Assembly (NCBI GenBank): GCA_964639295.1 | Contig: CAZXDT010000002.1 | Coordinates: 2,609-66,608, forward strand | Reading direction: 5' to 3' | Length of the DNA stretch: 64,000 bases | Source: an uncultured Candidatus Saccharibacteria bacterium | Lineage (GTDB): Bacteria > Patescibacteriota > Saccharimonadia > Saccharimonadales > JALRHH01 | In this document: positions 46,270 through 64,000 of the stretch, piece after piece | Layout: every line of letters begins with the position of its first letter | Position numbering within the stretch: the first letter of the stretch is position 1 | Program-made: the position numbers and the translations under genes | The notes under the pieces: generated by a model | The model's input: the letters and a program-made list of their open reading frames with translations, nothing else | The model's database searches: none | What the model was told of the DNA's origin: nothing

Positions 46270-46270
46270 G

Positions 46271-48008: not shown

Positions 48009-50008
48009 TCCTTACTAACAATGTCAAAAGGGTAACTCTCGGGACTATGATAATAGTCTCTTGTTTGGTATTCATCTCCTCTACTCTGGCATCAGCACTG
48101 TCGGGGGCAGATTTCCAAGCCGGCCGCATTACTGATGATGGAGTATTTTTTAATGCAGGGTCGTTAACAACTTCAGATATCCAGGCTTTCCTAAGTGCAA
48201 AAGTTCCGGTATGTGACACGAATGGGACACAGCCGTATGGTGGCACCACACGTGCTGCATATGGTACCAGTAAGGGGTATCCCCCTCCTTACATTTGCCT
48301 GAAGGATTATCGGCAAGATACCCCGGCAAAAGCAGCAGAGGTGGGCTTATGTAATGGAATAGTTGCAGGTAGCAATAAATCTGCGGCACAAATAATCTTT
48401 GAGGTCGCACAAAGCTGTAGTGTTAGCCCTAGAGCACTCATTGTATTACTCCAAAAAGAGCAAGCTTTGGTTACAGACGATTGGCCATGGAGCTCACAGT
48501 ATCGAAGCGCAACCGGATATGGTTGCCCCGACACAGCTGCTTGCGACAGTGCATATTATGGGTTTTTCAACCAGGTATACTCTGCCGCTAGGCAGTTCAA
48601 GAACTACGCAAGAGTTCCAAGCTCATTCAACTACATTGCTGGGCGAAACAACTACATACAGTACAACCCAAATGCCTCGTGTGGTGGCTCAACAGTATTC
48701 ATCCAGAATCAAGCTACTGCTGGTTTGTATAACTACACCCCTTACCAGCCTAATGCATCTGCTCTAAATAACCTCTACGGCACTGGAGACGGATGCGGGG
48801 CTTATGGTAACCGTAACTATTGGCGCCTTTACAACGACTGGTTCGGTTCAACATTTTCTCCCGAGTACGCTTGGGATGTAGTAAGTCAGCAATATACTAA
48901 TAATACCGCTGATATTGTGGCGGGTAGCACCACGCAAGTTACGTTAGTTGCTCGCAATACAGGCTTACAAACCTGGTATAGAGATGGCGCAAATGCAACA
49001 CACCTCGCTACATCAAATCCCAATGACAGAGCAAGCGGTTTCAACGATAGTAGTTGGTTCGGATACAACCGGCCAGCAATCTTGCAAGAGGCAAGCGTCG
49101 CACCTGGGCAGACAGGAACATTCACTTTTATCGCTAAAGCCCCGGCCTCACCAGGGCAATATAGAGAATACGTGAACCTGGTTGCCGAAGGTAGGGCATG
49201 GTTCGCCGGTCCAGCAGTTAACTTCTACTTCAATGTTCTGCCTCGAGTATTCAGCTGGCAAGTTGAATCACAATCGTACTCACCGTCAACGGCTTACCCA
49301 TTAGCTGGGAGTGAGTCGGTACTCACCTTAAAAGCAAAGAATACAGGCAATGTAACTTGGAAAAACTCTGGTCCAGGCGTGGTTAACCTAGGGACGATTA
49401 ACGAGACACTGAGCCAGTATTACCACCCTACATGGATTGGTAAGACAAGACCTGCAGCCCTACAGGAAGCAAGCGTCGCACCTGGGCAGACAGGAACATT
49501 CACCTTCCGTATTAACGTGCCCAAGAATCCGGGAGAATACCGGGAATACTTTAATCTAGTATCAGAAAATGTCGCTTGGATGCAAAATCCAAATATGAAT
49601 TTTTACCTTGGTGTTCAGGCTCGTAATTACAGTTGGAGAATAGTATCTCAGCAGTATTCCCCAAACACTGTCAACGTCAAAGCTGGTACAACGGCACAGA
49701 TCACTCTTATTGCACAAAATACCGGCAATGTTGCATGGAGCAATACGGGACCGTACCCCATACTACTTGGTACCTCAAACTTACAAGACCGTACAAGCAT
49801 ATTCCAAAATTCCAGCTGGATAGGCTATAACCGTCCGACTATATTGCAAGAGCCAAGTGTCGCCCCAGGTTCAAACGGAACATTCACATTTACCGTTAAG
49901 GCTCCTCAGGCAACTGGACAATACCGAGAATATTTTAATCTTGTAGCTGAAAACTTCACTTGGATGCCAAATCCAAACATGAACTTCTTCTTTAATGTAA
50001 CTCCCTAG
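48005..50008 (+). CDS. Secreted protein: Cys-containing N-terminal domain plus three tandem ~126-aa Ig-like (NBR1-like) repeats
   Basis: The signal-like N-terminus is MIIVSCLVFISSTLASA. Three repeats each end in SVAPGQTGTFTF...PGxYREYFNLV. The family call is from memory. Confidence 0.8.
   Translation: MILTNNVKRVTLGTMIIVSCLVFISSTLASALSGADFQAGRITDDGVFFNAGSLTTSDIQAFLSAKVPVCDTNGTQPYGGTTRAAYGTSKGYPPPYICLKDYRQDTPAKAAEVGLCNGIVAGSNKSAAQIIFEVAQSCSVSPRALIVLLQKEQALVTDDWPWSSQYRSATGYGCPDTAACDSAYYGFFNQVYSAARQFKNYARVPSSFNYIAGRNNYIQYNPNASCGGSTVFIQNQATAGLYNYTPYQPNASALNNLYGTGDGCGAYGNRNYWRLYNDWFGSTFSPEYAWDVVSQQYTNNTADIVAGSTTQVTLVARNTGLQTWYRDGANATHLATSNPNDRASGFNDSSWFGYNRPAILQEASVAPGQTGTFTFIAKAPASPGQYREYVNLVAEGRAWFAGPAVNFYFNVLPRVFSWQVESQSYSPSTAYPLAGSESVLTLKAKNTGNVTWKNSGPGVVNLGTINETLSQYYHPTWIGKTRPAALQEASVAPGQTGTFTFRINVPKNPGEYREYFNLVSENVAWMQNPNMNFYLGVQARNYSWRIVSQQYSPNTVNVKAGTTAQITLIAQNTGNVAWSNTGPYPILLGTSNLQDRTSIFQNSSWIGYNRPTILQEPSVAPGSNGTFTFTVKAPQATGQYREYFNLVAENFTWMPNPNMNFFFNVTP
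48866..50005 (+). repeat. Three tandem ~378-nt intragenic domain repeats
   Basis: The repeat units start near 48866, 49244 and 49622. Units 1 and 2 share an exact 35-nt block, gcaagcgtcgcacctgggcagacaggaacattcac (49091-49125 and 49469-49503). Confidence 0.85.
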
Positions 50009-51321
50009 ATACTTTTATCTATGGCGTTATGAATCTGTAGGTAGGTACTGTGCCATGTTTGACTCTTATACATGGCTTTGATTTGAGATTGTTTCGTAAG
50101 TAACTCTTTATCACTAGAGTACTTCACTATCTGATCGAGACAGGTTTGCGCGTCGAAAGGAGCGAAGTAGTCAATCAGATCACCAGCAATTTCAGGCATT
50201 GAAGAGGTGTTTGAAGAAATACATACTTTACCGTAAACAAGACTTTCTGCAATCGGCATACCCCATCCCTCGTATACAGAAGGGTAGACTGTAAACCTAC
50301 AGTTCTCGTATAACCAAACGAGCTGTGCATCAGTCACTCCATTAAGGATTACGATATCACCTTCTATATCAGGATCAGTTGCTACTTCAAAAAGGAGATC
50401 ATCTACAAGCCAACCCGGACGACCTACAATGACGAGTCTTGGCAGTTTAATAGACTGGAGTTTAGCTAGTTTGTATGTTTGGTACAGAAGACGGTGGTTC
50501 TTTCTCACCTCAATCGTACCGATACAGAGTATAAAGTCACCGTCTGGAAGAATAGGGGGCCTTTTTGGTGAAACTCTTGATTCTAGTACATCACTTAAGC
50601 GGACGACCGTTACTGGTTTTTTGGACAGACTTGTTTCTTGAAGGAATTTTAGAATATCCTTCTTGCTTGCTTCAGAGTTAGTCAATACAACGTCCGAAAC
50701 GGATAACGCGTCAAACATGTATTCGGTATACGCTCTCGGAAACCCTGGACCAAAAAATTGTGGGTGGTACACAGGAATCATATCGTGGACAAAGTGAGCA
50801 ATCCTGATTGCAGTATGCTTTTTTATTGCTGATAAGTCGTTAATAATTGTAGGCTTGCCCCAACCAGCACCAATAATTATAACGGTGTCACCTGCTAGGA
50901 AGTGTATCAAACGATCTCGGGAGCCACCCTTAGTCCTTGTAAAACTCTCTTTCAAGGCCTTTGCACCGTAGAAACTTTTTCTAAGGATAGGTCGTGCGAC
51001 GGGAGTTATTCTTTTCCTCAGCTCTGTTGGCACATATCCCGCGTAAATATTTTTTGCACTAACGACAACTTTTAAATACTTTTCCAGGAAGGACTTCTCC
51101 ACCTCCACCGGGTCGTCGTCAGTAGTCGCTACGGGGATAACTGTAGAAAAATCAACTTCATAAAAACTATGTGAGCGTTCGTCATACCAAAAGAAACCAG
51201 CATCGTCACGTTGGCTGTACTCTTTAGCAACACTAAATATTGTTCTCGGTATACCAGTGTAGTTTCCTGTCCAGGTTATAAGATCAGTTAGATCAACCCA
51301 GTATTTCTTGTTCGCGCTCAT
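50005..51321 (-). CDS. Glycosyltransferase family 4
   Basis: YPSVYEGWGMPIAESLVYGKV is the EX7E motif. It overlaps the convergent gene by 4 nt. Confidence 0.85.
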   Translation of the reverse strand: MSANKKYWVDLTDLITWTGNYTGIPRTIFSVAKEYSQRDDAGFFWYDERSHSFYEVDFSTVIPVATTDDDPVEVEKSFLEKYLKVVVSAKNIYAGYVPTELRKRITPVARPILRKSFYGAKALKESFTRTKGGSRDRLIHFLAGDTVIIIGAGWGKPTIINDLSAIKKHTAIRIAHFVHDMIPVYHPQFFGPGFPRAYTEYMFDALSVSDVVLTNSEASKKDILKFLQETSLSKKPVTVVRLSDVLESRVSPKRPPILPDGDFILCIGTIEVRKNHRLLYQTYKLAKLQSIKLPRLVIVGRPGWLVDDLLFEVATDPDIEGDIVILNGVTDAQLVWLYENCRFTVYPSVYEGWGMPIAESLVYGKVCISSNTSSMPEIAGDLIDYFAPFDAQTCLDQIVKYSSDKELLTKQSQIKAMYKSQTWHSTYLQIHNAIDKSI

Positions 51322-52517
51322 ATTGATTCTAGCTCCTCTTTTAGTGGCCTCAACGCTTCATTCCATAAAACATCTTCAACTCTGTCTGCCGGCTTGCCCT
51401 CTGTAGCCGTGCTCCTGATGCTGCGCATTTGCTCATGGAAATCAGACTTACTTTTCGCCAGTCGGACAACCGGTAGCCCCATAAAACTCTCATAGGCCCT
51501 AAATGCATACGGTGTTGCAATGATATTTTTTCCCGACAGTAGAGCCTCCGCGGTTTTAAGGTTGGAGCCCCCGCCTTCAGTAATTGGTAGTAAAATGGCA
51601 TCGCAAACACTAATTAGAGCCGCCAAGCTAGCTTCACTGAGACGGCCCGCAACTTCTGCCCTTTTCCAAAACGTTACTTGATCTGGGCTAAGCCCCCCAT
51701 ACATCCTCTCGGCAAGATCACATACGCTTCCCGCAAGAACAACTCGCTCATCAGCCTCAAGGAAACCCAAACTAGGACCAACCATAGCCTCAAAGCCAAG
51801 CCAGTTTGGAACATGCGCACTACTAACAAAAAGGTATGTTCTGTTAATGCCTCTTTTTTTGAAATATTTTTTCCAATATCTGACCCAGTAACCAGACAGT
51901 GGTACAGATGCAATACCGTTTGGTGCTGTGACTACTTTTTTAGCACCTAAATCCATAAGAGTACTTGCATCTTGGGCACTAACAGCTATCGATAAATCTG
52001 CGTCAGTCGCGAGTAACTTCTCGTAGTTGATAATTGTCTCCACCATTCTTGTTGCCTGGTCAACAGGGATGCCAACGTTAGCGTAAATCTCTTTTTTCAT
52101 CTCATGTTCAATATTATGAGAACTGTAAATAATTCTTGGGGTCAGATTAAGTTCCTTTAGTAGCTCTTTAAGCCCTATATAAGGATAGACCTGTTCAAGT
52201 TGTATAATTTCCGGCCTAAACTTGAGAAGGACTTTTGTGAGTTTCCTCTTAACAATTAAATCTTCGCTGATTGCCTCACCACAAAGAATGTCTTCAGAGT
52301 GTGGGCTTTGCTCTATTTTTTTCAACGTGCCCTGAGATACGGCAATATCGTCAGAGCCATGTGCTGGATGTGCAACTTTATTGTATACGGCAACATACTT
52401 GACCTGGCTAAACATGGACCTGTAGAGCTGGATTATGGCGGCTACCCTCTTAGGACCACCCTGGACCGAACGTGATATGGGATATGTACCGATAACAAGG
52501 ACTTTTGAGCTCAGCAT
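51318..52517 (-). CDS. Glycosyltransferase (GT-B fold, GT4-like)
   Basis: The C-terminal part ITEGGGSNLKTAEALLSGKNIIAT resembles a GT1/GT4 nucleotide-sugar binding site. It overlaps the downstream gene by 4 nt. Confidence 0.72.
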   Translation of the reverse strand: MLSSKVLVIGTYPISRSVQGGPKRVAAIIQLYRSMFSQVKYVAVYNKVAHPAHGSDDIAVSQGTLKKIEQSPHSEDILCGEAISEDLIVKRKLTKVLLKFRPEIIQLEQVYPYIGLKELLKELNLTPRIIYSSHNIEHEMKKEIYANVGIPVDQATRMVETIINYEKLLATDADLSIAVSAQDASTLMDLGAKKVVTAPNGIASVPLSGYWVRYWKKYFKKRGINRTYLFVSSAHVPNWLGFEAMVGPSLGFLEADERVVLAGSVCDLAERMYGGLSPDQVTFWKRAEVAGRLSEASLAALISVCDAILLPITEGGGSNLKTAEALLSGKNIIATPYAFRAYESFMGLPVVRLAKSKSDFHEQMRSIRSTATEGKPADRVEDVLWNEALRPLKEELESI

Positions 52518-52528
52518 GTATTTACCTA

Positions 52529-53734
52529 TTACTTTACTAAACTTTTAACTTTTACGTCCGGTGCAATATCAAACGGTGTAGGCCTGAGCTTATGGACAGA
52601 GAATGTCGTGGCTTCATTCCACCAGTCACAAACGCGTATGTCATCACTGTGTGATGCAGCTACTGACACAAAGTATGTGCCTGTTGCAAAGATGTCCTCG
52701 AATTCCCAATCGACATCTATCTCTTGCCCGGCTTTAACTAGACCAAGTTTATGCCCTTCAATTTTCATGTTTGTGCCAATAAGCGGTGTATTGTCGCCTG
52801 TTTTCACCTGAAAACCTAGGCTAGGATCTTCAAGGTCTGCATTTGCTACGGCTGACACTTTGAGGTGGACCATGCCACTATCGTCGTCGACTTTTGCAGA
52901 AGCTGTTTTGATTGTGATCTGACCATCACCCCACCTATCACCAGCCACTTTCTTTGGGTCAGTGCCTGGCTTGACTTGCCCATCGTCAATAAATAGCTGT
53001 AAGTAGTTTTGGGCTATTTTTTCAGGGTCGCCTTGATGAGTTATTTTACCCTTTTCAATAAGTATAGCTCTATCACAATACTCTCTTATAGCACTCATAT
53101 CATGACTGACGAGAATGACAGTGGTGTTTTCTTTTTTAAGTTTCTTAAAGTAGTCGAAACATTTTCTCTGAAAGTCAGCATCTCCAACCGCAAGTACCTC
53201 ATCAATAAGCAAGATATCTGCCTTTGCCTGTATAGCAAGAGAGAAAGATAGACGGACCTGCATTCCTGACGAGTAATTTTTCAGTTTTTGATCCATAAAC
53301 CTTTCGAGTTCTGCAAAATCAACAATATCTTGATATAGCTCATCGATTTCCTTTTTTGAGAAGTTCAGCAGTGCGCCGTTTAAATAAACATTCTCGCGTC
53401 CTGTTAATTCTGGGTTAAATCCAACTCCAAGTTCAATAAAAGGGACGAGCTTTCCTTCGATCTCGACGTGGCCATCCGTAGATTGATATATGCCTGCAAG
53501 GATTTTAAGCAGGGTGCTCTTACCACTACCGTTCCTTCCAACAATCCCGACAAACTCACCTTCTTTAATGTCAAAAGAGACATCATCAAGTACTTGTTGG
53601 ACCTCGTAAGACCGAACTAATCGTTTTTTTCCGAGCACATTTACAAAGAAGCTTTTTGCGGTATTTACCTTCTCGTGTGGCAGCTTAAAACGTTTTGAAA
53701 CACTGTCAACTTTTATAACTATCTTGTTAGCCAT
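52529..53734 (-). CDS. wzt: Polysaccharide ABC exporter ATP-binding protein (Wzt/TagH-type) with C-terminal glycan-binding-like domain
   Basis: Walker A GIVGRNGSGKSTLLK, signature YSSGMQVRLSFS and Walker B LLIDEVLAVGD are present. An extra ~150-aa beta-rich C-terminal domain (DRWGDGQITI...) follows. Confidence 0.88.
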   Translation of the reverse strand: MANKIVIKVDSVSKRFKLPHEKVNTAKSFFVNVLGKKRLVRSYEVQQVLDDVSFDIKEGEFVGIVGRNGSGKSTLLKILAGIYQSTDGHVEIEGKLVPFIELGVGFNPELTGRENVYLNGALLNFSKKEIDELYQDIVDFAELERFMDQKLKNYSSGMQVRLSFSLAIQAKADILLIDEVLAVGDADFQRKCFDYFKKLKKENTTVILVSHDMSAIREYCDRAILIEKGKITHQGDPEKIAQNYLQLFIDDGQVKPGTDPKKVAGDRWGDGQITIKTASAKVDDDSGMVHLKVSAVANADLEDPSLGFQVKTGDNTPLIGTNMKIEGHKLGLVKAGQEIDVDWEFEDIFATGTYFVSVAASHSDDIRVCDWWNEATTFSVHKLRPTPFDIAPDVKVKSLVK

Positions 53735-54549
53735 TACACATCCTCCGCGAAACTACCCGAATGCTTACGGAAGTACATGAATGAAAGAACTACCGATATG
53801 GCTGCAATACCCACGGGTATGAGTCGTACCCACCAATTACCATATAAGGTTGAGATCGTGTCGGTTTTACTGGTTATCAAACAGTATCTCAGGTCTTGTA
53901 TGATCTGAGCGACTGGGCTTGCTACAAGAATTTTTGCAGCCTTATCAGGCACAAGCGAGAGCGGGTATAGAATCGGGGTGGCATAAAAAGCACCTTGCAT
54001 GATCACCTCCCATATATATCCTACATCTCTCAGCCTGACATAGAGCGCACTCAAGAAAAATGCGATAGCTAGAGAGAACATGAACAACTCAAGCACTAAA
54101 AATGGCGCCAGCAAGCCAGACAGCCGGAAGTCAACGCCATTTATAAACATAAAGAAGAGGACTATTAGAAGATTGATTGCTAAGTTTATCAATGCGGAGA
54201 AAGATCCCGCTAGTACGATTACATACTTCGGGAAGTTCAATTTACGAATTAAATCCCCCCTAGAGACAATGGACGTTACACTTCCAGTCGTGATCTCTAC
54301 AAAGAAGTTCCAAAGAACAATGCCAAGCAGTAAATAAACTGGATAATGTGGTACATCTGCGCCAATTTTCAAGAACTTAACGAAAACAATATAGAGAATC
54401 AAGAATATCGCCAAGGGCCTCAGCAACGACCATAAATACCCTAAAAAGGAACCTTGGTAGCGAAGCTTGAAGTCTGTTTTGACAAGCTGCTTTAATAAGA
54501 TTAACGAGTAGCGGTAACGCTCAGACTGTTTACGTAATATATTTGTCAC
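53734..54549 (-). CDS. wzm: Polysaccharide ABC exporter permease (Wzm/TagG, ABC-2 type)
   Basis: Six TM helices are present. It overlaps wzt by 1 nt. Confidence 0.85.
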   Translation of the reverse strand: MTNILRKQSERYRYSLILLKQLVKTDFKLRYQGSFLGYLWSLLRPLAIFLILYIVFVKFLKIGADVPHYPVYLLLGIVLWNFFVEITTGSVTSIVSRGDLIRKLNFPKYVIVLAGSFSALINLAINLLIVLFFMFINGVDFRLSGLLAPFLVLELFMFSLAIAFFLSALYVRLRDVGYIWEVIMQGAFYATPILYPLSLVPDKAAKILVASPVAQIIQDLRYCLITSKTDTISTLYGNWWVRLIPVGIAAISVVLSFMYFRKHSGSFAEDV

Positions 54550-54591
54550 TTCAGGTGTTATTATACTTGTTTCTTTATTTAGCCACTAGTC

Positions 54592-56703
54592 TTACTTGCA
54601 ACCTAAGTTATCTATTAGAAGTGTTGTTTTCTTGCTTTCGGCTTTTAGGGCTATTGTGTTTGATTTAGTGATGAACTTCACCTCTTGATTCTGTGAAGAA
54701 ACACTAAGTCTAAGGTTAACTTTATCGCCGTCAGTAATCGTAACAGTATCCGCTCCATATTCGGCTCGTAGATCTAGGCACACTGATGAACCACTCGCAC
54801 TATCGTATCCAGGCAAACCCCTAATTGACAGCGTCGTACTATCTGACGCTCTATAGGAGAGACTAACTGGATTGGTGTACAACGGATCCAAGAAGCCAAG
54901 CGAGGGCATCAATACATACCCAACTTTGGGACCAGGAAGTACTTCATAGACAAATATTGGAGTCCACTTTGGGTTGTCACTAATATTAGTATCGGAGTAG
55001 ATTAACTTAAGGCCAGGGTTGTCTATTAGTTGTGGTGCACCATGTGTAACTACCGTATCAATCCCAAGCTGTCTAAGAACCGGCAACGTTTGTGGGTCAT
55101 TAAGATCTCTTATTGAATTTCTCAGAAGTGCTTCTTTGCTATTTGGTAAATAGGCATTCAGTAGGTTCTTACGATGAACAGTCTGCACCGTCGCGTAACC
55201 ACTTGGTAGCGTAGTTTGGGCTGGCTCATCTAGCGGGTATTCAGCAATATTCCGAATACTCTGATTTGCTTTAATATCAAAATAGATAGGGGGTACATCA
55301 CGTTTATAGTTCCATGTAGGTCGAGTTATCCCAAAGGTTTGATAGCTCAAGAATACCGTGAAGAAGATCAGCAAATATGCTACATATTTAATCCATCTTA
55401 GTGCTATTGCCCGTGTGATATAGGTGATACCAATAGAGCTAAAGATAACTAGTGCAATATTAATAGCCACGTATTGTCTCGAAAAAACTCGCCATATTGT
55501 GACATAATCCGTCAGATAGTATGTGGGTGTTTTATGCCCTAGGTACATAGGGGGGAGACTGAGTAAAAATGCCAGAAGCCCTATCGTCAGAGCAACAACA
55601 ATGACAGTACGTGGGTTAATGGCAAACCCGTGGTTCGACTTCCAGACCTTACCTCGTGTCAATTTCTCCCATAGTATGATTACTATGAAACAAAATGATA
55701 TAAACAATAGAGTCCAGCTCAAATAGACAGTAAATTCTGCTGTATTTGAACCGTGATGTTGATAGTTCTGAATAAAGTGCTTACCGGGGAGATGTTCTAC
55801 TAAAGGGCTCGATGCAGGGGGTAGTAGGTACTCAATCGGCCTACTGCTATATATATTTGCATCATACTTTATGTCATTTCTCGAATTAGACACAAACGAG
55901 TTTATAGAGGCGGCGTAGTGCACCCTTACAAACAGAAGAGGTATAAGCAACGTCATTGAGACCAAAGCAGCCAAGCAAACTCTTTGAGTGCGTTGACGTA
56001 AAAGTGGTCGCTCGGATTTTTCTAGAACATTAATTACAAAAAGACTACTTAGGCTTCCGATCAGAATAATGCCAACAAGAAGGATGAAGTAAGGGTCAAT
56101 GTAACCTGATGCTGCAGTTAAAACACCGAGTGATATCGGCCAAAGTCGTTTCTTGGAGCTCCACAGTAACAGCGTTATCCATAACACACCTACCAGTAAC
56201 ATCTGATAGCCATAACTTGGGTGAACACTCACTTTCGTTTGAAAATAAGGTGCAAAACTTAATGCAAAACCAGCCAATAAGGCAACCCAATTATTTCTAG
56301 TTAGCCACTTGATAAAAGCAAACATAACAACTGCAGAGCCCACAAAACCCACAAAGTTCAGTATGTTATATGAACATATCGAACCGAACACATGTGAAAG
56401 TACCCAGTAAAATGTATACAGGAGTATGCTACTCCAGTGAACGGGCTGCCATAAGTTCTCACCAATCGGGAAGTTTGTTGCGTTTGTAAAGCCCCATATA
56501 AGTGAGTGATTGGTTACCGAATTTAACCATATAGGCCCCGCTGTACTATCGCCCATTGACAGAACCGTGTTCGAGCAACTAGTTAATGCTGGACGCATAT
56601 ACCAGAATGCCGCTATAGCATAGAAGACTGTAGCTAGTAACCATGGGGAACTCAATTTTGTTATGAGAGGAGGTTTCTTCAGGATAGCTACTTTGCGCTT
56701 CAT
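54592..56703 (-). CDS. Large polytopic membrane protein, GT-C/YfhO-like putative extracytoplasmic glycosyltransferase
   Basis: The 703-aa product has at least 12 hydrophobic helices in the first ~465 aa, then a ~240-aa soluble C-terminal domain. It sits in the glycan locus. The functional call is inference. Confidence 0.6.
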   Translation of the reverse strand: MKRKVAILKKPPLITKLSSPWLLATVFYAIAAFWYMRPALTSCSNTVLSMGDSTAGPIWLNSVTNHSLIWGFTNATNFPIGENLWQPVHWSSILLYTFYWVLSHVFGSICSYNILNFVGFVGSAVVMFAFIKWLTRNNWVALLAGFALSFAPYFQTKVSVHPSYGYQMLLVGVLWITLLLWSSKKRLWPISLGVLTAASGYIDPYFILLVGIILIGSLSSLFVINVLEKSERPLLRQRTQRVCLAALVSMTLLIPLLFVRVHYAASINSFVSNSRNDIKYDANIYSSRPIEYLLPPASSPLVEHLPGKHFIQNYQHHGSNTAEFTVYLSWTLLFISFCFIVIILWEKLTRGKVWKSNHGFAINPRTVIVVALTIGLLAFLLSLPPMYLGHKTPTYYLTDYVTIWRVFSRQYVAINIALVIFSSIGITYITRAIALRWIKYVAYLLIFFTVFLSYQTFGITRPTWNYKRDVPPIYFDIKANQSIRNIAEYPLDEPAQTTLPSGYATVQTVHRKNLLNAYLPNSKEALLRNSIRDLNDPQTLPVLRQLGIDTVVTHGAPQLIDNPGLKLIYSDTNISDNPKWTPIFVYEVLPGPKVGYVLMPSLGFLDPLYTNPVSLSYRASDSTTLSIRGLPGYDSASGSSVCLDLRAEYGADTVTITDGDKVNLRLSVSSQNQEVKFITKSNTIALKAESKKTTLLIDNLGCK

Positions 56704-57593
56704 TAAAAAAGCTTTTTCTTGGATGTAAATATAAGATTTTCGTTGCTATAGACCGGCATGTCGTCTAGTTGTTTCTTGGTAACAGTCTCTAGTTTGTTGT
56801 TGATCTCATCTACCCTGAAACAAGTTGTATAGTTTGCAAATAGTAGCCTGGTAAATTCTCTTCTATCAAATCCGCATTCCTTCATTGCCCCAGGACTGAA
56901 CTCTATGAATACAACCGGCTTGTGTTTCTTGATCGTTGCGAGCGCACCTCTCAGGGCGAATCCATCATAGCCTTCAATGTCTATCTTCAAAAGATCAACA
57001 TTATTCACATTATTCTTCTTTACATAGTTATCGATTGTAATCTGCTGCACCTCAACTGGCCTGGAACCTTTGCCAGCATTACTCTGTGCAGCAGAATGAT
57101 TGCCAATATTTACATCCGACTGATAAATCACTATCTTCTTGGGCGTGTCACCTACTGCTACATTATTAACCACTATCCTTGACGTCAACTTATTTAAAGC
57201 TGCATTCTTTTTCAGCATAATCACGTTTGCGACTATGGGCTCAAAAGTTATTATTTTTGCTGTCTTAGGAGCAAACTTTGCCCCAAGTACCGCGTAGAGT
57301 CCTATATTCCCACCAACATCCAGGGTGACCTTAGAATTTGCTACAATTTTCTTGTACACATCTAACTCATAAGACTCGTAGTACCCCCCTACGAGTCCGG
57401 GTACCAAAGCCCTGTCAGAGGTTGGAGCTATAAGCTTGATCCCTTTGTAGCTGATTTCAATCTCTTCACCCTTATGACCGGCTTGAAAGATAGCACCTTT
57501 GATCTTACTTGTAATTGTCCAGCTATTTATAGGAGTGTGTACAAAGATTCTTCTAAAGAACTTAATAATACCAAGGGACAAAGAACTCAACAT
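56703..57593 (-). CDS. FkbM family methyltransferase
   Basis: The SAM-binding motif is LDVGGNIGLYAV. FIEFSP and IDIEGYD segments are typical of Methyltransf_21. Confidence 0.85.
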   Translation of the reverse strand: MLSSLSLGIIKFFRRIFVHTPINSWTITSKIKGAIFQAGHKGEEIEISYKGIKLIAPTSDRALVPGLVGGYYESYELDVYKKIVANSKVTLDVGGNIGLYAVLGAKFAPKTAKIITFEPIVANVIMLKKNAALNKLTSRIVVNNVAVGDTPKKIVIYQSDVNIGNHSAAQSNAGKGSRPVEVQQITIDNYVKKNNVNNVDLLKIDIEGYDGFALRGALATIKKHKPVVFIEFSPGAMKECGFDRREFTRLLFANYTTCFRVDEINNKLETVTKKQLDDMPVYSNENLIFTSKKKLF

Positions 57594-57606
57594 GTAGACT
57601 CCATTT

Positions 57607-58437
57607 TTATCTATCTTTAAACCTTAATAGTATATCAAACGTACTACCTTTAACGGATATGGGCGAGGCGTACGTGATATCAAAATCACCAAACTTCTTA
57701 CGAAGAATATCCAGCATTTCACTGTGTTGATAGTCGCGCTCTCGATCAACAGACATTTCCATAAACAGATAATCAAAGTATATATCGTCTAGAGTCTTAA
57801 CAACTGTTTTCTCGAATCCCTCAACATCAATCTTGACGAGGTCATACTTCTTCCTATTGGTTAGTGGTTGGATTGAATCCGTCATTCGTACATCTACCCC
57901 TTCAATTCTCGACAGGTTCTCGGATGCATTTGACTTCAAAAGTGATCCTGTAGCAGAACGTCCAGGTTCATAGTACATTTTTGCCTTTTTATCTGCTGGA
58001 CCAATAGCATATTCGTAAGCTTTCACGTTTGGTAAGCCTGCAATATTTTGCCTAAGCAAAGGAAATACTTCACCGTTAGGTTCAAACACATCAATCTTTG
58101 CCTTCCCATCAAGTGCATAATTCATAGTTACACTGAACTGTCCAAGGTTGCCACCGATATCAAGTACGGTCTTGGGATGTATATGCATATTCGCTAGGAT
58201 CTTTTTATTAATCTCGTAAGGGTAATTCTGAAGGTTCAACGGTGTTGCGATATTATCGAAAACAAAGTCTGTACCCAAGTATGAGATCGTCCTACTTCGT
58301 CCAAACAGTACACCCAATATTGTAAAAGCTATCGACGGATAATAGGTTAGTTTATGACGAAGACGTATGCCTCCGGTGAGCCATTCTCTATTTCTTTCAA
58401 TTGGCATCAAATTCTTAATATAGTGCGTGACTCTCAT
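57607..58437 (-). CDS. FkbM family methyltransferase
   Basis: The SAM-binding motif LDIGGNLGQFSV and the KIDVEGFE segment are present. Confidence 0.85.
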   Translation of the reverse strand: MRVTHYIKNLMPIERNREWLTGGIRLRHKLTYYPSIAFTILGVLFGRSRTISYLGTDFVFDNIATPLNLQNYPYEINKKILANMHIHPKTVLDIGGNLGQFSVTMNYALDGKAKIDVFEPNGEVFPLLRQNIAGLPNVKAYEYAIGPADKKAKMYYEPGRSATGSLLKSNASENLSRIEGVDVRMTDSIQPLTNRKKYDLVKIDVEGFEKTVVKTLDDIYFDYLFMEMSVDRERDYQHSEMLDILRKKFGDFDITYASPISVKGSTFDILLRFKDR

Positions 58438-59468
58438 TACTTTACCTTAGCCTTAACTGATGTGATCAATTTTATTATTGTTGCCTTCCAGATACCAAGT
58501 GCGTAAATAATTGCGAAGATTGGCGAAAGCAAAAATAAAGACAAAGCATCCTTAAATGCCACCCCGAGGGCTATGGCAGTTAATAGTTCAAGCACCCACA
58601 GTATCACTAAAACTACGGTTACAGGTAGTAGTATTGAGGAATTCAGAATTACTGATATAAGGACGGCTGCTGAGCCAATCAAAAAAGCCGTAAGTGGGAG
58701 GAAGAAGCGATTGCCTGGGCTCAAGAATCCCGCAACAAAAGACTGCCCCCTGAACATTGTGTGTCGGACAAATTGTAAGAGATTGGTTCTAGCATGATAC
58801 GTACAGGCAAAATCAGGTGATATATTGATGCGATGTCGTTCTGCTATTAGCCTTATAAGGTGTGTGTCGTCACTAGAGTTACGAATATCAAACGTTTCTT
58901 TCTCAAAGCGCTTGGTGGCTTCAAGGATTATTTTCTTTGGTACAAAAAAGCACGTTGTACCCTTTGGAAAGTAGTCAAATTCCTTGAGGCCATAGGAGGT
59001 AAGCCGAGGGTCAGAAAAGTACCTTCGCCATCCAATAAAAGTTATTGCGTCGCCGAAACGAGCAATAATATTTCCTTCTTTTTTAACATTAACGTGGGAA
59101 TTCCATACTTCTCTCTCGGGGTGCTCTTTAAACTGTGTAGTTAAGAATTTCAACGCGTTCTTATCTAAGAAAACACGACTGTCAATAAATAAGATACTGT
59201 CGAAGCTTGAAGCCATAACGCCAGCCTTTCTAGCCAAATACCTACCTGAGTTCTTTTGGTCAATCACACGCACCTTGACTGATGCTTTCAGTTTGTGCGC
59301 TACGATAGACGTATCGTCCGAAGATCCATCATTGACAATAACTACCTCTGCACGCTTGATTCCAGCCTCAATGAGAGCGATATCAAGCTTTCCTACAGTT
59401 GGCTCAAGCCAAGCTGCAGAATTATAAGCAGGGATTATTATGCTAACTCCAAAAGACATTGCATTCAT
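58437..59468 (-). CDS. Glycosyltransferase family 2 with C-terminal TM helices
   Basis: SIIIPAYNSAAWL and VNDGSSDDT are present, followed by three or four C-terminal hydrophobic helices. Confidence 0.85.
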   Translation of the reverse strand: MNAMSFGVSIIIPAYNSAAWLEPTVGKLDIALIEAGIKRAEVVIVNDGSSDDTSIVAHKLKASVKVRVIDQKNSGRYLARKAGVMASSFDSILFIDSRVFLDKNALKFLTTQFKEHPEREVWNSHVNVKKEGNIIARFGDAITFIGWRRYFSDPRLTSYGLKEFDYFPKGTTCFFVPKKIILEATKRFEKETFDIRNSSDDTHLIRLIAERHRINISPDFACTYHARTNLLQFVRHTMFRGQSFVAGFLSPGNRFFLPLTAFLIGSAAVLISVILNSSILLPVTVVLVILWVLELLTAIALGVAFKDALSLFLLSPIFAIIYALGIWKATIIKLITSVKAKVK

Positions 59469-59528
59469 AATATCATCTGATCGAGATTTGTGCCCTAAGA
59501 TAGGCTTGAGATATCATGTATAGAAGCT

Positions 59529-60788
59529 ATGAGATCAAAGTTTTCAAATTTTTACTTCACATCTGGACTTTTTGCGGTGATTTCTTGTGTTGCCGCCGTA
59601 CTAAACTATCTACTCTACCCGTCAATTAGCCATCTTCTGGATACTGCCAGCTTTGGTAGTTTCACGGTATTGAATGCAATAACAAATCAGTTTTTTGGTA
59701 TTTTACTAGCTTTTAACTTAACAAGTATCTACATCGTGAAGACTTTCCCGGAAAAAGAAGCCAAGGAGAACGCTCAGACTGTGCAAAAGTCCTTGATATG
59801 GATGTTCTGTGTGTTGTGTATTGTTCTGTTATTCTGTTCCCCGATACTAAATCAGAAGCTAAAGATAGAGGAGCCTTTTGCCTTCTTGGTGATTGCGTTT
59901 ACACTTCTCGTGTCTGTACCAGCCGTTGTATGGACAGGTTATCTCCAGGGTCATAAGAAAATACTCCACGTTGGGGTCTTTGGCGTTGTGTCTGCCTTGT
60001 CTAAGTTAATAGCCGCACTTGTCGCAGCAAGTCTGTTTGGTGTAGTTGGAGGTCTCGTTGGCGTCCTGGCTGGATCCCTTGTTGGTCTGGCTATACTAAA
60101 ACTCACTAGCCCAGTGGAGTTACCACGCATTAGCTCAATATTTTCAAGGTTCTCCAAACCACAGCGAGCATTCTTAAAGTCGTCAAGATCTTACCTTATG
60201 GGCTCAGTCGTTATAGTTGGGGTATTGGGTGTCTTGCAAAATATAGATATCACCTACGCAAAGTACCTTTTTAGCCCAGAAGTTGCTGGAGCATACTCTG
60301 GTATTAGCATTCTAAGTTATGCGGTCTTTTTTGGATTCTTTGTACTTTTTTGGATAGTCCTACCAGAAATTGACTTAAACAAACCCCTTCACAACAAACA
60401 GCTTTTAAAGACTACGTATAAAATAGTTGCAACACTTGGAACCACCGCAATACTACTGACACTTGCAGCACAACACCTGATCGTCAGACTATTATTAAAC
60501 GATGACTTTTCGCACCTAAGTAACATGTTGGTATTTGCTGTAACATACCAAATATTTCTGGTATCAGTAACGCTTTATACGTACTATTTATTAGTAATCC
60601 GTAGTAAGTTTAGCTTATTGCTAGCTGCTTGCGTGGCAATACCTTCGTTGTCGCTCCCTTTGACAGCAGACAGTCCTATGCAGCTAATCGTACTATTGAA
60701 CGTAGGTATTCTTACTGGGTTTAGTATTTTTCAGACGATTAAGCTAGTATTAGCTATCAGGAGTAAGTATGTCAAAACAACTCATTAG
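59529..60788 (+). CDS. Oligosaccharide/polysaccharide flippase (Wzx-like, MOP superfamily)
   Basis: The 419-aa product is almost entirely hydrophobic, with about 12 TM helices, and sits in the glycan locus. Confidence 0.72.
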   Translation: MRSKFSNFYFTSGLFAVISCVAAVLNYLLYPSISHLLDTASFGSFTVLNAITNQFFGILLAFNLTSIYIVKTFPEKEAKENAQTVQKSLIWMFCVLCIVLLFCSPILNQKLKIEEPFAFLVIAFTLLVSVPAVVWTGYLQGHKKILHVGVFGVVSALSKLIAALVAASLFGVVGGLVGVLAGSLVGLAILKLTSPVELPRISSIFSRFSKPQRAFLKSSRSYLMGSVVIVGVLGVLQNIDITYAKYLFSPEVAGAYSGISILSYAVFFGFFVLFWIVLPEIDLNKPLHNKQLLKTTYKIVATLGTTAILLTLAAQHLIVRLLLNDDFSHLSNMLVFAVTYQIFLVSVTLYTYYLLVIRSKFSLLLAACVAIPSLSLPLTADSPMQLIVLLNVGILTGFSIFQTIKLVLAIRSKYVKTTH

Positions 60789-61713
60789 TGTTATCGTCCC
60801 CGTTCATAACGAAGCAAGTAACCTAGCGTGGCACCATAAGAAGATCGTCAAGGTCTTGGAGAAGATTCCATTTAGAGCAGAGGTAATATACGTGAACGAT
60901 GGCAGTTCAGACTCATCTCTTGATATCTTGAAAACGCTAAAAGCTAAAGAGATAGACGTTAGATACATAAGTTTCTCGCGAAACTTTGGTAAAGAAGCCG
61001 CCACCTCAGCTGGCCTGCAAAACTGTAAGGGGGATGCGGCTATTATGATTGATGCAGACGGACAGCATCCAATTGACATGTTGCCTCAGTTCATTAAGGA
61101 ATGGCTTGCTGGCAACCATGTAGTTATTGGAGTAAGGACCCAGAACACAAACGAAGGTTTAGTAAAAAAATACGGGTCTCTTGCTTTTAATAAGGTATTG
61201 AACTCCTTCACGGGAGGTAATACTAAGCCGGGTTCGACCGACTTCAGACTCTTGGATCGACGAGTCATTAACCAATTTAATACCCTAACCGAACACAATC
61301 GCATTACACGGGGTTTAATTGACTGGCTCGGATTTAAACGTAGTTTTGTTGAGTTTATAGCCCCCGCACGGCACAGTGGTGAGGCGTCCTATGGTGTTGG
61401 CAAACTTATTAAGCTTGCTTTTCACGCACTTGTTTCACAAACAACAAAGCCCCTACAGGTAACAGGTCTTCTGGGTGTCTTAGTGATGGCCCTTTCTGCT
61501 ATTGTAGGAATCGCTATAATTTTCGAGAAGTATGCCCTAGGGGATCCACTGGAACTTGCGATCACCGGGACGGCTCTTTTGGCCTTGTTTATCAGCTTCT
61601 TGGTTGGCCTTGTTATGATAAGCAATTGGTTACTAGCTTTGTACATTGAGAGTATTCACAGCGAGACACAGAATCGACCACTGTATATCGTAGAAGAGTC
61701 GTCTGACGAATAG
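60769..61713 (+). CDS. Polyprenol-phosphate glycosyltransferase (GT2; GtrB/ArnC/Dpm1-like)
   Basis: AGGAG lies upstream of the ATG. ISVIVPVHNEASNL, YVNDGSSDSS and MIDADGQHP are present, plus two C-terminal TM helices. It overlaps the flippase gene by 20 nt. Confidence 0.88.
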   Translation: MSKQLISVIVPVHNEASNLAWHHKKIVKVLEKIPFRAEVIYVNDGSSDSSLDILKTLKAKEIDVRYISFSRNFGKEAATSAGLQNCKGDAAIMIDADGQHPIDMLPQFIKEWLAGNHVVIGVRTQNTNEGLVKKYGSLAFNKVLNSFTGGNTKPGSTDFRLLDRRVINQFNTLTEHNRITRGLIDWLGFKRSFVEFIAPARHSGEASYGVGKLIKLAFHALVSQTTKPLQVTGLLGVLVMALSAIVGIAIIFEKYALGDPLELAITGTALLALFISFLVGLVMISNWLLALYIESIHSETQNRPLYIVEESSDE

Positions 61714-61714
61714 G

Positions 61715-62842
61715 CTAGGAGTTAATGTATCCTTCTTTCATAAAGTAGTTGATAACCACTTTTGATGGTGAAGTCTTATTACTCATCTTTGCAAAATCTG
61801 CCTTATTGCTGTGGTTTTCCAGAAAGTTTGCTACCTTCTTAACATCCATGCGTGAGATGTCGGCATTTAAGCCCAAGCCCTCGCTTCTCTCAGTCCTTCC
61901 GCGATGCACCATAGTAGGAATACCCAAGAAAAATGCATCTTCTTGTAAGCCACCGCCGTCAGTCACAATGTAGTCTGCGCCGTTCACGATCGCCATAAAG
62001 TCAAAGTAGGGTTGTTTGGGAATGGTCAGGAAGCCCTCTTTATTGAAGTAATGCTCAAAGCCGTATGCTGCAATTTTTGCTTTGGTTGTAGTATGTTCAG
62101 TAAACACGACTGGGGTTTTAGCACTAGCGTGCTTATTAAGAACCTTCAGAATAGCCTCAAGATCAGTCTTATTCTCTAATAACTCCGTTCTGTGAAGCAA
62201 AACAAGGCAATAGCTTTTTGGGAGGTTCAGTTTCTTAAGTTCATCACTTTTGTACTTATCTGCTCTCTCTATCGCATCTTTTGCGGTGTTGTAAGTTGTA
62301 TTCACAATTATACCCTTAACCTTTTCGCCCCTAAGGTTTGCCTCCGCATCTTCATTCGGTGCAAAGTGTATGCGTGCAAACTTGGCAGCAATTCTTCTGT
62401 CAATCTCCTCTGGGAATGGGCTCTTCCAGTGTCCGCTTCGTAGTCCTGCCTCAACGTGAGCAACAGGTAGCCCCAGTGCCTTTCCTAAGTAACAGCCCAC
62501 AACGGTAGTAAGAGTATCTCCGTGTACAACGGCAACACTCTTCGTGTTGTGAGCCTTATCATAACTCTTGATTTTTTTCTTTATTGACCTGAATTGTCTG
62601 GCAAATGACGAGTGTGATTGGACCATCATCAAAAGCATCTGCTTCATGTTTGCCACGTCTTTTCCACGCCAGCCCCTAGAGAGGTAAACATCCGGTTCTA
62701 TCCCTAGTTGCTTATGTACCTTCTGTAAGCCGGCATGCTGCTGTGCATTACATATCAACAGCTGTTCTTCTCTGGGGATACCTTTAATAATACCTAGTAT
62801 TTTGATAAGCTCTGCGCTTGTCCCGTAAAATACAACTACCAT
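61715..62842 (-). CDS. wecB: UDP-N-acetylglucosamine 2-epimerase (non-hydrolysing, WecB-like)
   Basis: HVEAGLRSG and VTDGGGLQEDAFFLGIPT...GRTERSEGL motifs are present. Confidence 0.85.
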   Translation of the reverse strand: MVVVFYGTSAELIKILGIIKGIPREEQLLICNAQQHAGLQKVHKQLGIEPDVYLSRGWRGKDVANMKQMLLMMVQSHSSFARQFRSIKKKIKSYDKAHNTKSVAVVHGDTLTTVVGCYLGKALGLPVAHVEAGLRSGHWKSPFPEEIDRRIAAKFARIHFAPNEDAEANLRGEKVKGIIVNTTYNTAKDAIERADKYKSDELKKLNLPKSYCLVLLHRTELLENKTDLEAILKVLNKHASAKTPVVFTEHTTTKAKIAAYGFEHYFNKEGFLTIPKQPYFDFMAIVNGADYIVTDGGGLQEDAFFLGIPTMVHRGRTERSEGLGLNADISRMDVKKVANFLENHSNKADFAKMSNKTSPSKVVINYFMKEGYINS

Positions 62843-62907
62843 ACTAATTCACTGCTTTCGACTATTCTGATTAGAATTTTCTTACCACTATAGAATATTA
62901 TTAATTC

Positions 62908-64000
62908 ATGTCATCTCCAAAGATTAAGTTACTATTCGATGTCAGCCCACTTACAAACAGCAGGAAGTCTGGTGTTGGATTCTATACAGAAAGACTCCTG
63001 CACGCCCTAGCGACCCGGTATCCGAATGAACTTCACATAGTTGGCCACTACTTTAACTTTCTTGACAGAAAGGACGTAGCTCTTCCTGGCTACCCAAATG
63101 TAGAATATCGCCGTACTAAATACTTTCCTTCTAAATTGATCAACATCATGCGTCGTTTTGGCATAGAACCCCCTATTGAGCTATTCTTACGCTATAAGGG
63201 TAACTTTATTATCTACCCTAACTTCACGAGCTACCCATCTCTTAGACACACCCCATCTGCAGCTGTCATCCATGACCTTGGTTACCTGGATTGTCCGGAA
63301 TACCTACAAGCACCTAACCGAAGATTCCTGGAACGATACGTACCAAGATCCCTCAAGCGCACACGTTTCACCATTACGATATCGAAGGTAACTCAGAACG
63401 CCCTGGTAAAACACTACGGTATTGCCAATGATGATTTTCTAATTACACCCATTCCAGTCCCGGCCACTAATGTACAGCCTACCCAGCCAAAAGTTGTAAC
63501 TGGCAAATTCATACTATTCATCGGCACCCTTGAGCCAAGAAAGAATTTTATAAACCTTGTGCGAGCATACATGTTGTTACCAGAAAATGTACGCAATGAG
63601 TACGGTCTCGTACTTGCAGGAGGTACTGGTTGGCACGTGAAGCAAGAAATGGACGAAATAGAGCAACTCCAAAATGACGGTGCAAATATTACGACCACGG
63701 GGTACTTCTCTGATAGCGAGAAGGAATGGATGCTCAAAAACGCAGCCCTATTTGTCCAGCCATCTCACTACGAAGGCTTTGGTATGCCTATTCTTGAGGC
63801 TATGGATGCGGGCCTACCTACTTTAGTAAGTGATATAGAGATTTTTCACGAAGTAAGCGATGACGCAAGCCTGTTTTTTGACCAAGACGAACCACAATCT
63901 ATTGCTGATGCAATTTCCAAAGTTATAAATGATCCTGAGTTGCAACAAAAACTCCGTAAGTTAGGTCACGAACAAACAAAGAAACATGATTGGAATACTA
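62908..64000 (+). CDS. Glycosyltransferase family 4 (3' end cut by window edge)
   Basis: This gene is not in the ORF track because no stop occurs before the window end. I read the frame through by eye without a stop: MSSPKIKLLFDVSPLTNSRKSGVGFYTERLL...FVQPSHYEGFGMPILEAMDAGLPTLVS (EX7E). Confidence 0.85.
   Translation, partial: MSSPKIKLLFDVSPLTNSRKSGVGFYTERLLHALATRYPNELHIVGHYFNFLDRKDVALPGYPNVEYRRTKYFPSKLINIMRRFGIEPPIELFLRYKGNFIIYPNFTSYPSLRHTPSAAVIHDLGYLDCPEYLQAPNRRFLERYVPRSLKRTRFTITISKVTQNALVKHYGIANDDFLITPIPVPATNVQPTQPKVVTGKFILFIGTLEPRKNFINLVRAYMLLPENVRNEYGLVLAGGTGWHVKQEMDEIEQLQNDGANITTTGYFSDSEKEWMLKNAALFVQPSHYEGFGMPILEAMDAGLPTLVSDIEIFHEVSDDASLFFDQDEPQSIADAISKVINDPELQQKLRKLGHEQTKKHDWNT

Follow-up and report, generated by a model that had tools for sequence, protein, structure and literature searches.

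The pathways closest to the locus described here are those in which the terminus of a glycan is modified in the cytoplasm and the modification is read by the ATP-binding cassette (ABC) transporter protein Wzt before export, a logic shared with WbdD and Wzt of Escherichia coli O9a and O8 (equivalent to Klebsiella pneumoniae O3 and O5). A ruler has been reported on every characterised terminator (PMC11231755; PMC3482155). In Aquifex aeolicus the C-terminal domain of Wzt binds a 3-O-methyl-mannose or 3-O-methyl-rhamnose cap, the sugar being hydrogen-bonded by N313 and H350 and the methyl pocket being formed by L300, T346, A348 and W362, and the substitution W362L abolishes binding (PMC9445017). 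ABC-dependent pathways with separate methyltransferases have precedents, and so do capped glycans from bacteria that lack an outer membrane. For instance, PA5457 and PA5459 of Pseudomonas aeruginosa are devoid of the WbdD interaction domains and are partly redundant, at least one of the two being required (PMC3560663), and in Geobacillus stearothermophilus a 2-O-methyl cap has been proposed as the termination and export signal of a glycan that is transferred to a surface protein outside the cell (PMC2943079). Here we describe a related set of genes in a 64,000-nucleotide stretch of DNA (hereafter the window, to which all coordinates without a locus name refer) from an uncultured Candidatus Saccharibacteria bacterium (GenBank assembly GCA_964639295.1, contig CAZXDT010000002.1, positions 2,609 to 66,608). 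The interval under study, 52529-58437, encodes on its minus strand the glycan exporter Wzm/Wzt, two FkbM-family methyltransferases (MTA and MTB) and a large membrane protein (M703). We give even odds to the proposition that this interval forms the core of an envelope-glycan locus conserved in Saccharibacteria, with an ABC-transporter-dependent route and a methyl cap made by FkbM enzymes.

Almost nothing has been described of the surface chemistry of Saccharibacteria, which live as ultrasmall epibionts. A transposon sequencing (Tn-seq) study found putative exopolysaccharide genes to be important for their growth on the host, and our full-text literature search returned no paper mentioning both Saccharibacteria and Wzt.

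The Wzt cap-binding domain and the gene that follows wzt

The wzt gene (52529-53734, minus strand) encodes an ABC_tran domain (PF00005) followed by a Wzt_C domain (PF14524). The best matches of the nucleotide-binding domain (residues 1-254; 52973-53734, minus strand; PF00005, 83.8 bits) in the Protein Data Bank (PDB) were Wzt proteins, including those of Aquifex and mycobacteria, TagH/TarH and RfbE. The C-terminal part (residues ~255-401; 52529-52972, minus strand) matched Wzt_C over residues 288-381 at 68.5 bits, against a cutoff of 30.4, and the protein aligned over its full length, this domain included, with A. aeolicus Wzt (8dku, E 2e-65). When the C-terminal domains of 11 Saccharibacteria Wzt proteins were made into a profile, it matched the isolated carbohydrate-binding domain of Aquifex (8dky/6o14, E 2.4e-10) and that of E. 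coli O9a (2r5o, E 2.6e-3). An initial annotation of the window, which proposed a WbdD-like chain-terminating system split over separate polypeptides, had taken this extra domain to be of the glycan-binding type, and comparison with the carbohydrate-binding modules of known Wzt proteins found just such a similarity. Judged by homology, it is a bona fide Wzt cap-binding domain.

The Aquifex numbering was rebuilt from the alignment and matches the published residue names. At the eight Aquifex contact positions compared (I299, L300, N313, T346, A348, H350, H355, and W362), the Asn, Ala and Trp are identical in the window (N313 corresponding to N322, A348 to A359, and W362 to W371/372) and T346 is conservatively replaced by Ser (S357), while L300, H350, and H355 correspond to Q309, S361, and D364, respectively. 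The pocket retains the Trp lid and an Asp, contains no basic residue, and came closest to Aquifex at the residues that contact the methyl group. Like Aquifex, the window has an uncharged residue at position 346, a property shared by only one of 14 related sequences, that of locus L030 (related loci are designated here by L numbers). Of the 15 Saccharibacteria sequences examined, all keep the pocket Asn and 13 keep the Trp. Read from a low-identity alignment, which is no proof, the window pocket fits a small neutral cap such as an O-methyl group.

Scanning genome and metagenome collections with an alignment of M703 identified 63 related loci (27 and 36, respectively), and when the window proteins were mapped onto them the same locus was found to recur in related Saccharibacteria contigs, so that the gene arrangement is not a chance juxtaposition. 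The conserved set comprises the initiating phosphoglycosyltransferase, the glycosyltransferases GT4a, GT4b, and GT2a, the GDP-mannose supply enzymes ManC and PMM, sometimes GlmS, an Ig-repeat surface protein, M703 (sometimes duplicated), a Wzx-like protein with 11 transmembrane segments, a PgfS/ArnC-like GT2 enzyme, Wzm and Wzt. Every Wzt seen in the related loci carries the C-terminal domain. Exact-sequence look-ups of Wzt and M703 gave short Logan contigs alone, devoid of taxon and of gene context. The ABC-2 permease Wzm (53734-54549, minus strand; PF01061 (ABC2_membrane), 58.2 bits) is 58-59% identical to the permeases neighboring Wzt in L002 and L016.

The position directly after wzt was compared in the 16 loci, the window included, in which the 3′ end of wzt is visible. 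In eight of them it is occupied by a Methyltransf_23 gene that is convergent to wzt and lies on the minus strand of its contig (L002:5201-6259, L003:1268-2269, L015:662-1627, L018:713-1717, L028:298-1251, L032:1078-2040, L050:1305-2309, and L059:1080-2060). The encoded proteins (317-352 residues) are 37-57% identical to one another, have an N-terminal extension of ~150 residues, and are probably the usual terminator of the lineage. A pair of FkbM methyltransferases takes the position in one locus (L021), and FkbM genes also stand in the corresponding place, where the contig is cut, in L019, L026, L048, and L049. Altogether a methyltransferase follows wzt in nine of the 15 relatives and a WbdD homolog in one further. 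No such enzyme was present there in six of the 16 loci (L004, L016, L020, L030, L043, and the window). In the window the gene that begins 11 nucleotides past wzt is GT4c (51318-52517, minus strand), which encodes a divergent GT4-like protein with only sub-threshold matches to Glyco_transf_4 and Glyco_trans_1_4 and no NCBIfam or PDB match; among the related loci an ortholog was found only in L002 (42% identity).

The WbdD homolog is encoded in L039, a Saccharibacteria-type metagenome contig, by a gene (L039:1379-2971, plus strand; 530 residues) that overlaps wzt at the 3′ end of the latter. Its product combines a Methyltransf with a Pkinase domain, both of them covered by the match to WbdD in the PDB (4azs, E 1.3e-43), and has an N-terminal coiled-coil-like region containing tandem QLSTHDFRIDRL repeats. 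The Wzt of this locus is the only one in which an Arg replaces the Trp lid of the cap pocket, as would be expected for an anionic methyl-phosphate cap. Thus cap-and-export is strongly supported for this lineage, and its binding pocket appears to follow the chemistry of the cap. Pocket residues 300 and 346 were both compared with the identity of the post-wzt enzyme, within a small set of related sequences; position 346 is acidic in seven of the seven Methyltransf_23-bearing loci in which it is visible, but also in most loci without Methyltransf_23. In L004, L016, and L020 the binding domain of Wzt is visible, yet there is no methyltransferase in 22 kb, from which we infer that the lineage probably also uses caps or decorations other than methyl. 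The equivalent regions of L004 (5051-6226, 14832-17107), L016, L020, and L049 have no methyltransferase in view and hold a DegT aminotransferase instead. UDP-glucose dehydrogenase and/or a UXS-like epimerase/dehydratase, a supply route like that for 4-amino-4-deoxy-L-arabinose (Ara4N), are encoded in L004, L016, and L020.

The FkbM methyltransferases and the source of the cap

MTB (57607-58437, minus strand; 276 residues) and MTA (56703-57593, minus strand; 296 residues) both score above the curated cutoffs for PF05050 (41.9 and 68 bits, respectively) and TIGR01444 (73.5 and 103.5 bits), and are 29% identical to each other. Each consists of an N-terminal region of ~90 residues and an FkbM domain, has no transmembrane segment, and retains the motifs for S-adenosylmethionine (SAM), LDVGGNIG and KIDIEG in MTA and LDIGGNLG and KIDVEG in MTB, so that a lipid-linked glycan on the cytoplasmic side of the membrane could be a substrate of either. 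The minus-strand genes from GT2a to GT4b are separated by gaps of 11-42 nucleotides or overlap by one or four nucleotides, spacings that point to a single tightly coupled operon; the start of MTB overlaps the stop of GT2a by one nucleotide, as do the stop of MTA and the start of the M703 gene, and wzm and wzt. A scan for promoters and terminators from 49.5 to 60 kb found sites no more commonly than in shuffled sequence. The open reading frames and their Pfam and NCBIfam matches thus place Wzt, Wzm, the two FkbM genes, and an APH-family kinase where the initial annotation had them, and its observation that the FkbM genes share a minus-strand block with the exporter genes holds, the two enzymes being soluble and encoded in the same translationally coupled operon as wzm and wzt.

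MTA orthologs (35-52% identity) mostly lie directly upstream of the M703 gene, and MTB orthologs (41-49% identity) are present in L005, L007, L008, L025, L028, and L052; orthologs of both were found only within this Saccharibacteria locus. The gene order of the window, GT2-FkbM-FkbM-GT-C, is repeated in L055 and in one Joint Genome Institute (JGI) contig. Neither protein had a WbdD match in the PDB at E<=1 or any similarity to the L039 WbdD homolog, the 4azs match of which served as positive control. Judged by their length, MTA and MTB are too short to hold a WbdD-type coiled-coil ruler of ~250 residues. PDB sequence searches with the two proteins were otherwise uninformative, and a literature search on FkbM together with O-antigen gave nothing useful. 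A Pfam scan (E<=10) produced no match of either to PF05575, the family of Vibrio cholerae RfbT, although several MTA homologs match it weakly. When the 64-kb window was compared with the enzyme types of the related loci, it contained no Methyltransf_23 protein, no WbdD homolog, and no other methyltransferase of those types. The initial annotation had suggested that the FkbM enzymes could be one part of a split WbdD-like system, an idea that fails on these results, as nothing in the window belongs to the WbdD family.

With the post-wzt position empty of a terminator, MTA and MTB are the only candidates in view for the cap enzyme, and a role as terminator is plausible for them. The window and L030 both have an MTA-type enzyme and no post-wzt methyltransferase, and no other locus has a small uncharged residue at position 346; this coincidence, in a set of few and related sequences, is suggestive support for a role of MTA in capping. 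We judge the chances as equal, for and against, that at least one of MTA and MTB makes the cap read by the Wzt domain.

The pathway we propose runs as follows. A WbaP-type phosphoglycosyltransferase would initiate the chain on polyprenyl phosphate, and cytoplasmic GT4 and GT2 enzymes would lengthen it, using GDP-mannose and UDP-N-acetylhexosamine (UDP-HexNAc) provided by genes of the locus. MTA and/or MTB, as soluble SAM-dependent enzymes, would O-methylate the non-reducing terminal sugar, and the C-terminal domain of Wzt would bind the neutral methyl cap in the manner of Aquifex, thereby licensing export by Wzm/Wzt. As there is no coiled-coil ruler, chain length would hang on competition between extension and methylation. 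Outside the membrane, M703 would decorate or transfer the glycan, supplied by the PgfS/ArnC-like GT2 enzyme and a Wzx- or GtrA-like flippase. The APH-family kinase would have no part in capping; as a NahK-like kinase acting on the anomeric position of HexNAc, it would work beside GlmS in the supply of UDP-HexNAc.

Several points weigh against this pathway, and a number of them lead to a different role for the FkbM enzymes. The post-wzt terminator slot of the window is empty of a methyltransferase or WbdD, GT4c standing there, and the MTA and MTB genes, two genes ahead of wzm, adjoin those of GT2a and M703, as their orthologs almost always do. In L028, L032, and L059 orthologs of MTA/MTB co-occur with a post-wzt Methyltransf_23 and are there probably not the terminator, or not the sole one. 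A hot spot lies between GT2a and M703, holding from zero to three methyltransferases of differing families, genome to genome, a variability typical of strain-variable decoration. Four of the eight Aquifex contact positions are changed (L300Q, H350S, H355D, and I299F), and the mapping of the pocket rests on ~20-25% identity, with MAFFT and HMMER placing the Trp one residue apart. Residue 346 showed no significant correlation with the post-wzt enzyme in the few, related sequences compared. In addition, we know of no FkbM enzyme of this clade that has been characterised, and the view of this genome is confined to 64 kb. It is feasible, then, that MTA and MTB are strain-variable decorators acting on internal residues or on a sugar added by the GT2 or GT-C enzyme, and that the terminal signal still read by the Wzt domain comes from GT4c, which might add a terminal sugar, or from a methyltransferase encoded outside the window. 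The linkage of the FkbM orthologs to GT2a and M703 and not to wzt, their co-occurrence with Methyltransf_23, the hot spot, the presence of GT4c, with its single ortholog in L002, in the terminator position, and the three loci that have a binding domain and no methyltransferase in 22 kb are all in keeping with decoration. Against it stand the Aquifex-like methyl contacts of the window pocket, the lack of another methyltransferase in 64 kb, the FkbM enzymes that do hold the post-wzt position in L021 and others, and the want of an informative GT4c homolog in Pfam, NCBIfam, or PDB, so that we consider it a possible explanation, but one with clearly less than an even chance of being right. Export might also be independent of any cap, the C-terminal domain serving to tether the polymer or to regulate the ATPase and chain length depending, as in K. 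pneumoniae O2a, on the amount of transporter relative to the synthesis enzymes. The six loci, including the window, that lack a post-wzt enzyme (three of them with no methyltransferase at all in view) and the absence of a ruler protein speak for such a mode. However, all Wzt proteins with this domain that have been characterised depend on a terminal modification, the domain is missing from cap-independent transporters, and the pocket Asn and Trp are retained across the Saccharibacteria sequences as described above, so that we regard this mode of export as improbable.

The remaining alternative is the full model of the initial annotation, in which the kinase would phosphorylate the terminal sugar and an FkbM enzyme would methylate the phosphate, giving a methyl-phosphate cap like that of O9a or O7 through separate polypeptides. 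The kinase (42646-43656, plus strand; PF01636, 63.9 bits) is encoded within the wider glycan locus and belongs to the protein-kinase-like/APH superfamily, and AmiN was among the fold matches of its AlphaFold2 (AF2) model (template modeling (TM) score ~0.6). A precedent that tells against our reading is the terminator of K. pneumoniae O7, which uses an AmiN-like kinase of the APH fold (PMC11231755), so that the fold class alone cannot exclude a capping kinase. For the same reason the absence of WbdD similarity is by itself a weakened argument against a capping role. The kinase is more closely related to NahK (N-acetylhexosamine 1-kinase), which it matched at E 1e-13 as a single sequence; a profile from 19 members of the family matched NahK at E 5.6e-45, covering residues 12-334 of 336, with homoserine kinase as runner-up (E 8e-7), and recovered neither WbdD nor AmiN at E<=10. 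The six best fold matches of the AF2 model (mean predicted local distance difference test (pLDDT) 90.7) were all NahK (TM score 0.76, 21% identity); WbdD was outside the top 50, in a PDB copy that the L039 control proves to contain it, and the kinase had no similarity to the L039 WbdD homolog either. The gene lies ~9 kb away on the opposite strand, beside glmS, and in the three of three related contigs examined its orthologs directly precede glmS within a phosphoglycosyltransferase-GT4-kinase-GlmS block, an arrangement indicative of hexosamine supply. No ortholog was found in any of the 63 loci centered on M703, even where glmS is present. Finally, the window pocket has the Trp lid, an Asp, and no basic residue, unlike the WbdD-bearing locus with its Trp-to-Arg exchange. 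It is on the NahK relationship, the glmS linkage, the lack of orthologs in related loci, and the chemistry of the pocket that we judge the kinase to be non-capping, and we hold the methyl-phosphate model to be highly improbable. The simplest reading of the sequence relationships is that the kinase phosphorylates HexNAc at the anomeric position and so feeds UDP-HexNAc, and we judge that it would serve precursor supply and not the cap system, the glmS context being what supports a putative phosphorylation of GlcNAc/GalNAc at C1. A literature search on Saccharibacteria with N-acetylhexosamine kinase gave nothing useful. Of the cap-and-export system from separate polypeptides that had been put forward for the window, then, the Wzt_C domain, the methyltransferases of the operon, and the post-wzt methyltransferases and WbdD homolog of relatives uphold the general design, and the kinase drops out of it.

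M703 and the neighboring genes

The largest gene of the interval, occupying about one third of it and absent from the initial annotation, encodes M703 (54592-56703, minus strand), a membrane protein of 703 residues. It had no Pfam, NCBIfam, or PDB sequence match. An AF2 model built with 29 homologs (pLDDT 84, predicted TM score (pTM) 0.86) matched STT3, DPY19, AftA, PglB, Emb, and ArnT in Foldseek with E-values down to 3e-8, and ends in a C-terminal beta-sandwich domain that resembles carbohydrate-binding modules. In the model M703 has the architecture of a GT-C enzyme, with multiple transmembrane segments and a conserved acidic residue in the first extracytoplasmic loop; D52, in the motif GDSTAGPIW near the N-terminus, is invariant in the 29 sequences. 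All of the homologs found come from Candidatus Saccharibacteria metagenome-assembled genomes, and on the predicted fold M703 is a glycosyltransferase of the GT-C type representing a new, Saccharibacteria-restricted subfamily. A few members of this family carry PF19830/DUF6311, and M703 is duplicated in several relatives, e.g., L016, L020, L039, and L050.

As putative suppliers of M703 in the pathway we place two plus-strand genes that lie next to the GT2a end of the operon. The first, o419 (59529-60788), encodes a Wzx-like membrane protein with 11 hydrophobic segments, orthologs of which carry PF01943. The second, GT2b (60769-61713), encodes a polyprenyl-phosphate sugar synthase similar over its full length to PgfS (E 4.5e-61) and ArnC (E 1.6e-34), with two C-terminal transmembrane helices. 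Together with M703 these proteins probably form an extracytoplasmic glycosylation module, and we infer that M703 decorates or transfers the exported glycan. A GtrA-like protein (39607-40047, minus strand) shares the locus with GT2b, o419, and M703, which suggests a three-component module beside the ABC exporter.

The operon begins with GT2a (58437-59468, minus strand; Pfam Glycos_transf_2, 54.8 bits), a family-2 glycosyltransferase with C-terminal membrane segments (hydrophobic stretches at residues 253-332), orthologs of which adjoin the GT-C gene in most related loci. It ends with GT4b (50005-51321, minus strand; Glycos_transf_1, 63.9 bits), a GT4 glycosyltransferase with orthologs of 34-38% identity in many of them. 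Chain initiation is assigned to a WbaP/WcaJ-type polyprenyl-phosphate hexose-1-phosphate transferase (40041-41540, plus strand; Bac_transf 192.7 bits; TIGR03025 334.8 against a cutoff of 295.55), followed by GT4a (41537-42637, plus strand), a GT4 gene conserved with it in related loci. GDP-mannose would be supplied by a HAD-IIB/PMM-like enzyme (45496-46287, minus strand; PF03332/PF08282) and a mannose-1-phosphate guanylyltransferase-like enzyme (46271-47314, minus strand) with an NTP_transferase domain and a ManC beta-helix, TIGR01479 matching at E 8e-76 over the GMP part. The supply genes for GDP-mannose and the several GT4 genes noted by the initial annotation were thus recognised by Pfam and NCBIfam as well. 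The wider locus also holds GlmS (plus strand), a UDP-GlcNAc 2-epimerase, and UppP.

Three features of the surroundings may be mentioned. The G+C content drops from ~0.46 to 0.40-0.43 over the glycan operon and its neighbors (50000-64000), and such drops are frequent in surface-glycan loci that exchange genes. The gene of a small protein with a LexA DNA-binding domain (39134-39595, minus strand) is flanked by uppP and the gtrA-like gene and lies a short way upstream of the initiating transferase; three related contigs keep this arrangement, and the protein may be a regulator of the locus. A surface protein of 667 residues (48005-50008, plus strand), with an N-terminal signal anchor and three N_BRCA1_IG repeats, is preceded by a protein of 186 residues with a single transmembrane segment (47448-48008, plus strand). 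This pair adjoins the glycan locus in nearly all relatives and may be the acceptor of the glycan or its wall-associated partner.

Relation to characterised systems

The comparison of related loci allows a broader view of termination in this lineage, which we put forward tentatively, as it is doubtful that all of its parts hold together. Termination would be modular, with an exchangeable slot after wzt occupied by a WbdD-type methyltransferase-kinase, a Methyltransf_23 protein, FkbM enzymes, or nothing, and with pocket residues that change with the occupant, Trp giving way to Arg with WbdD and position 346 being small and uncharged where only an MTA-type FkbM enzyme is present. The capped polymer would then be handled outside the membrane by the lineage-specific GT-C enzyme, which would attach it to, or decorate it on, the wall or the conserved Ig-repeat surface protein. 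If this is true, it would be the first defined surface-glycan pathway of a bacterium of the Candidate Phyla Radiation (CPR), and strain-variable caps could matter for the recognition of host bacteria or for recognition by phages. In any case, the conserved locus, in which ABC-dependent export through a cap-reading transporter is combined with exchangeable terminator enzymes, offers a concrete, testable handle on the Saccharibacteria surface glycan. The most useful new facts come from the relatives, namely the exchangeable post-wzt position, the WbdD homolog of a Saccharibacteria-type contig, and the Saccharibacteria-specific GT-C family, and for the field of O-antigen and S-layer glycans the gain is a lineage, not a mechanism.

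Among solved structures the closest relative of the window Wzt, over its full length, is that of A. aeolicus WzmWzt (8dku, 8dky, 6o14; PMC9445017). The two share the pocket Asn, Ala, and Trp, with the Thr-to-Ser exchange, and the GDP-mannose genes make it plausible that the window glycan, too, contains mannose. They differ in the replacement of L300, H350, and H355 and in the host, here a Saccharibacteria bacterium with neither an outer membrane nor lipopolysaccharide (LPS). The binding domain of E. coli O9a Wzt is a detectable relative of the window domain; unlike the E. coli O9a and O8 systems, the window has no WbdD homology, no coiled-coil ruler, and no membrane-anchoring region, its methyltransferases are of the FkbM type, and its kinase is NahK-like and encoded elsewhere.

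By analogy, precedents for stand-alone methyltransferases that are terminal or essential are provided by PA5457/PA5459 and by WbeT. The P. aeruginosa common polysaccharide antigen, a homopolymer exported by Wzm/Wzt, has two small stand-alone methyltransferases as the window does (PMC3560663), but these serve the O-antigen of a Gram-negative LPS, reportedly resemble the methyltransferase of WbdD(O8), and have an unproven role as terminators. WbeT (RfbT) of V. cholerae O1 stands alone and methylates only the terminal sugar of the O-antigen; export can proceed without this methyl group, as is shown by Inaba strains, which lack it. The NahK of Bifidobacterium longum (4ocj, 4wh1) is the full-length profile and fold match of the window kinase, for which the glmS context fits amino-sugar nucleotide supply; the two are ~21% identical, and the window has no lacto-N-biose operon context. 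Three-component systems (GtrA/GtrB/GtrC, ArnC/ArnT, and Pgf of Streptococcus mutans) likewise combine a similar GT2 enzyme, GtrA- or Wzx-like proteins, and a GT-C enzyme in one locus (PMC11127046); the GT-C enzyme of the window differs in coming from a Saccharibacteria-restricted family without a Pfam match.

The S-layer glycan pathway of G. stearothermophilus NRS 2004/3a (WsaP, WsaC-F, Wzm/Wzt, and WsaB; PMC2943079) resembles that of the window in combining a WbaP-type initiator with Wzm/Wzt in a bacterium without an outer membrane. Of such a pathway the window has the initiator, the transporter, and methyltransferases, the capping role of the last being putative. In Geobacillus methylation falls to one domain of the trifunctional WsaE, and the transferase WsaB belongs to a different type; the window instead encodes free-standing FkbM proteins, a GT-C membrane enzyme, and a conserved Ig-repeat surface protein.

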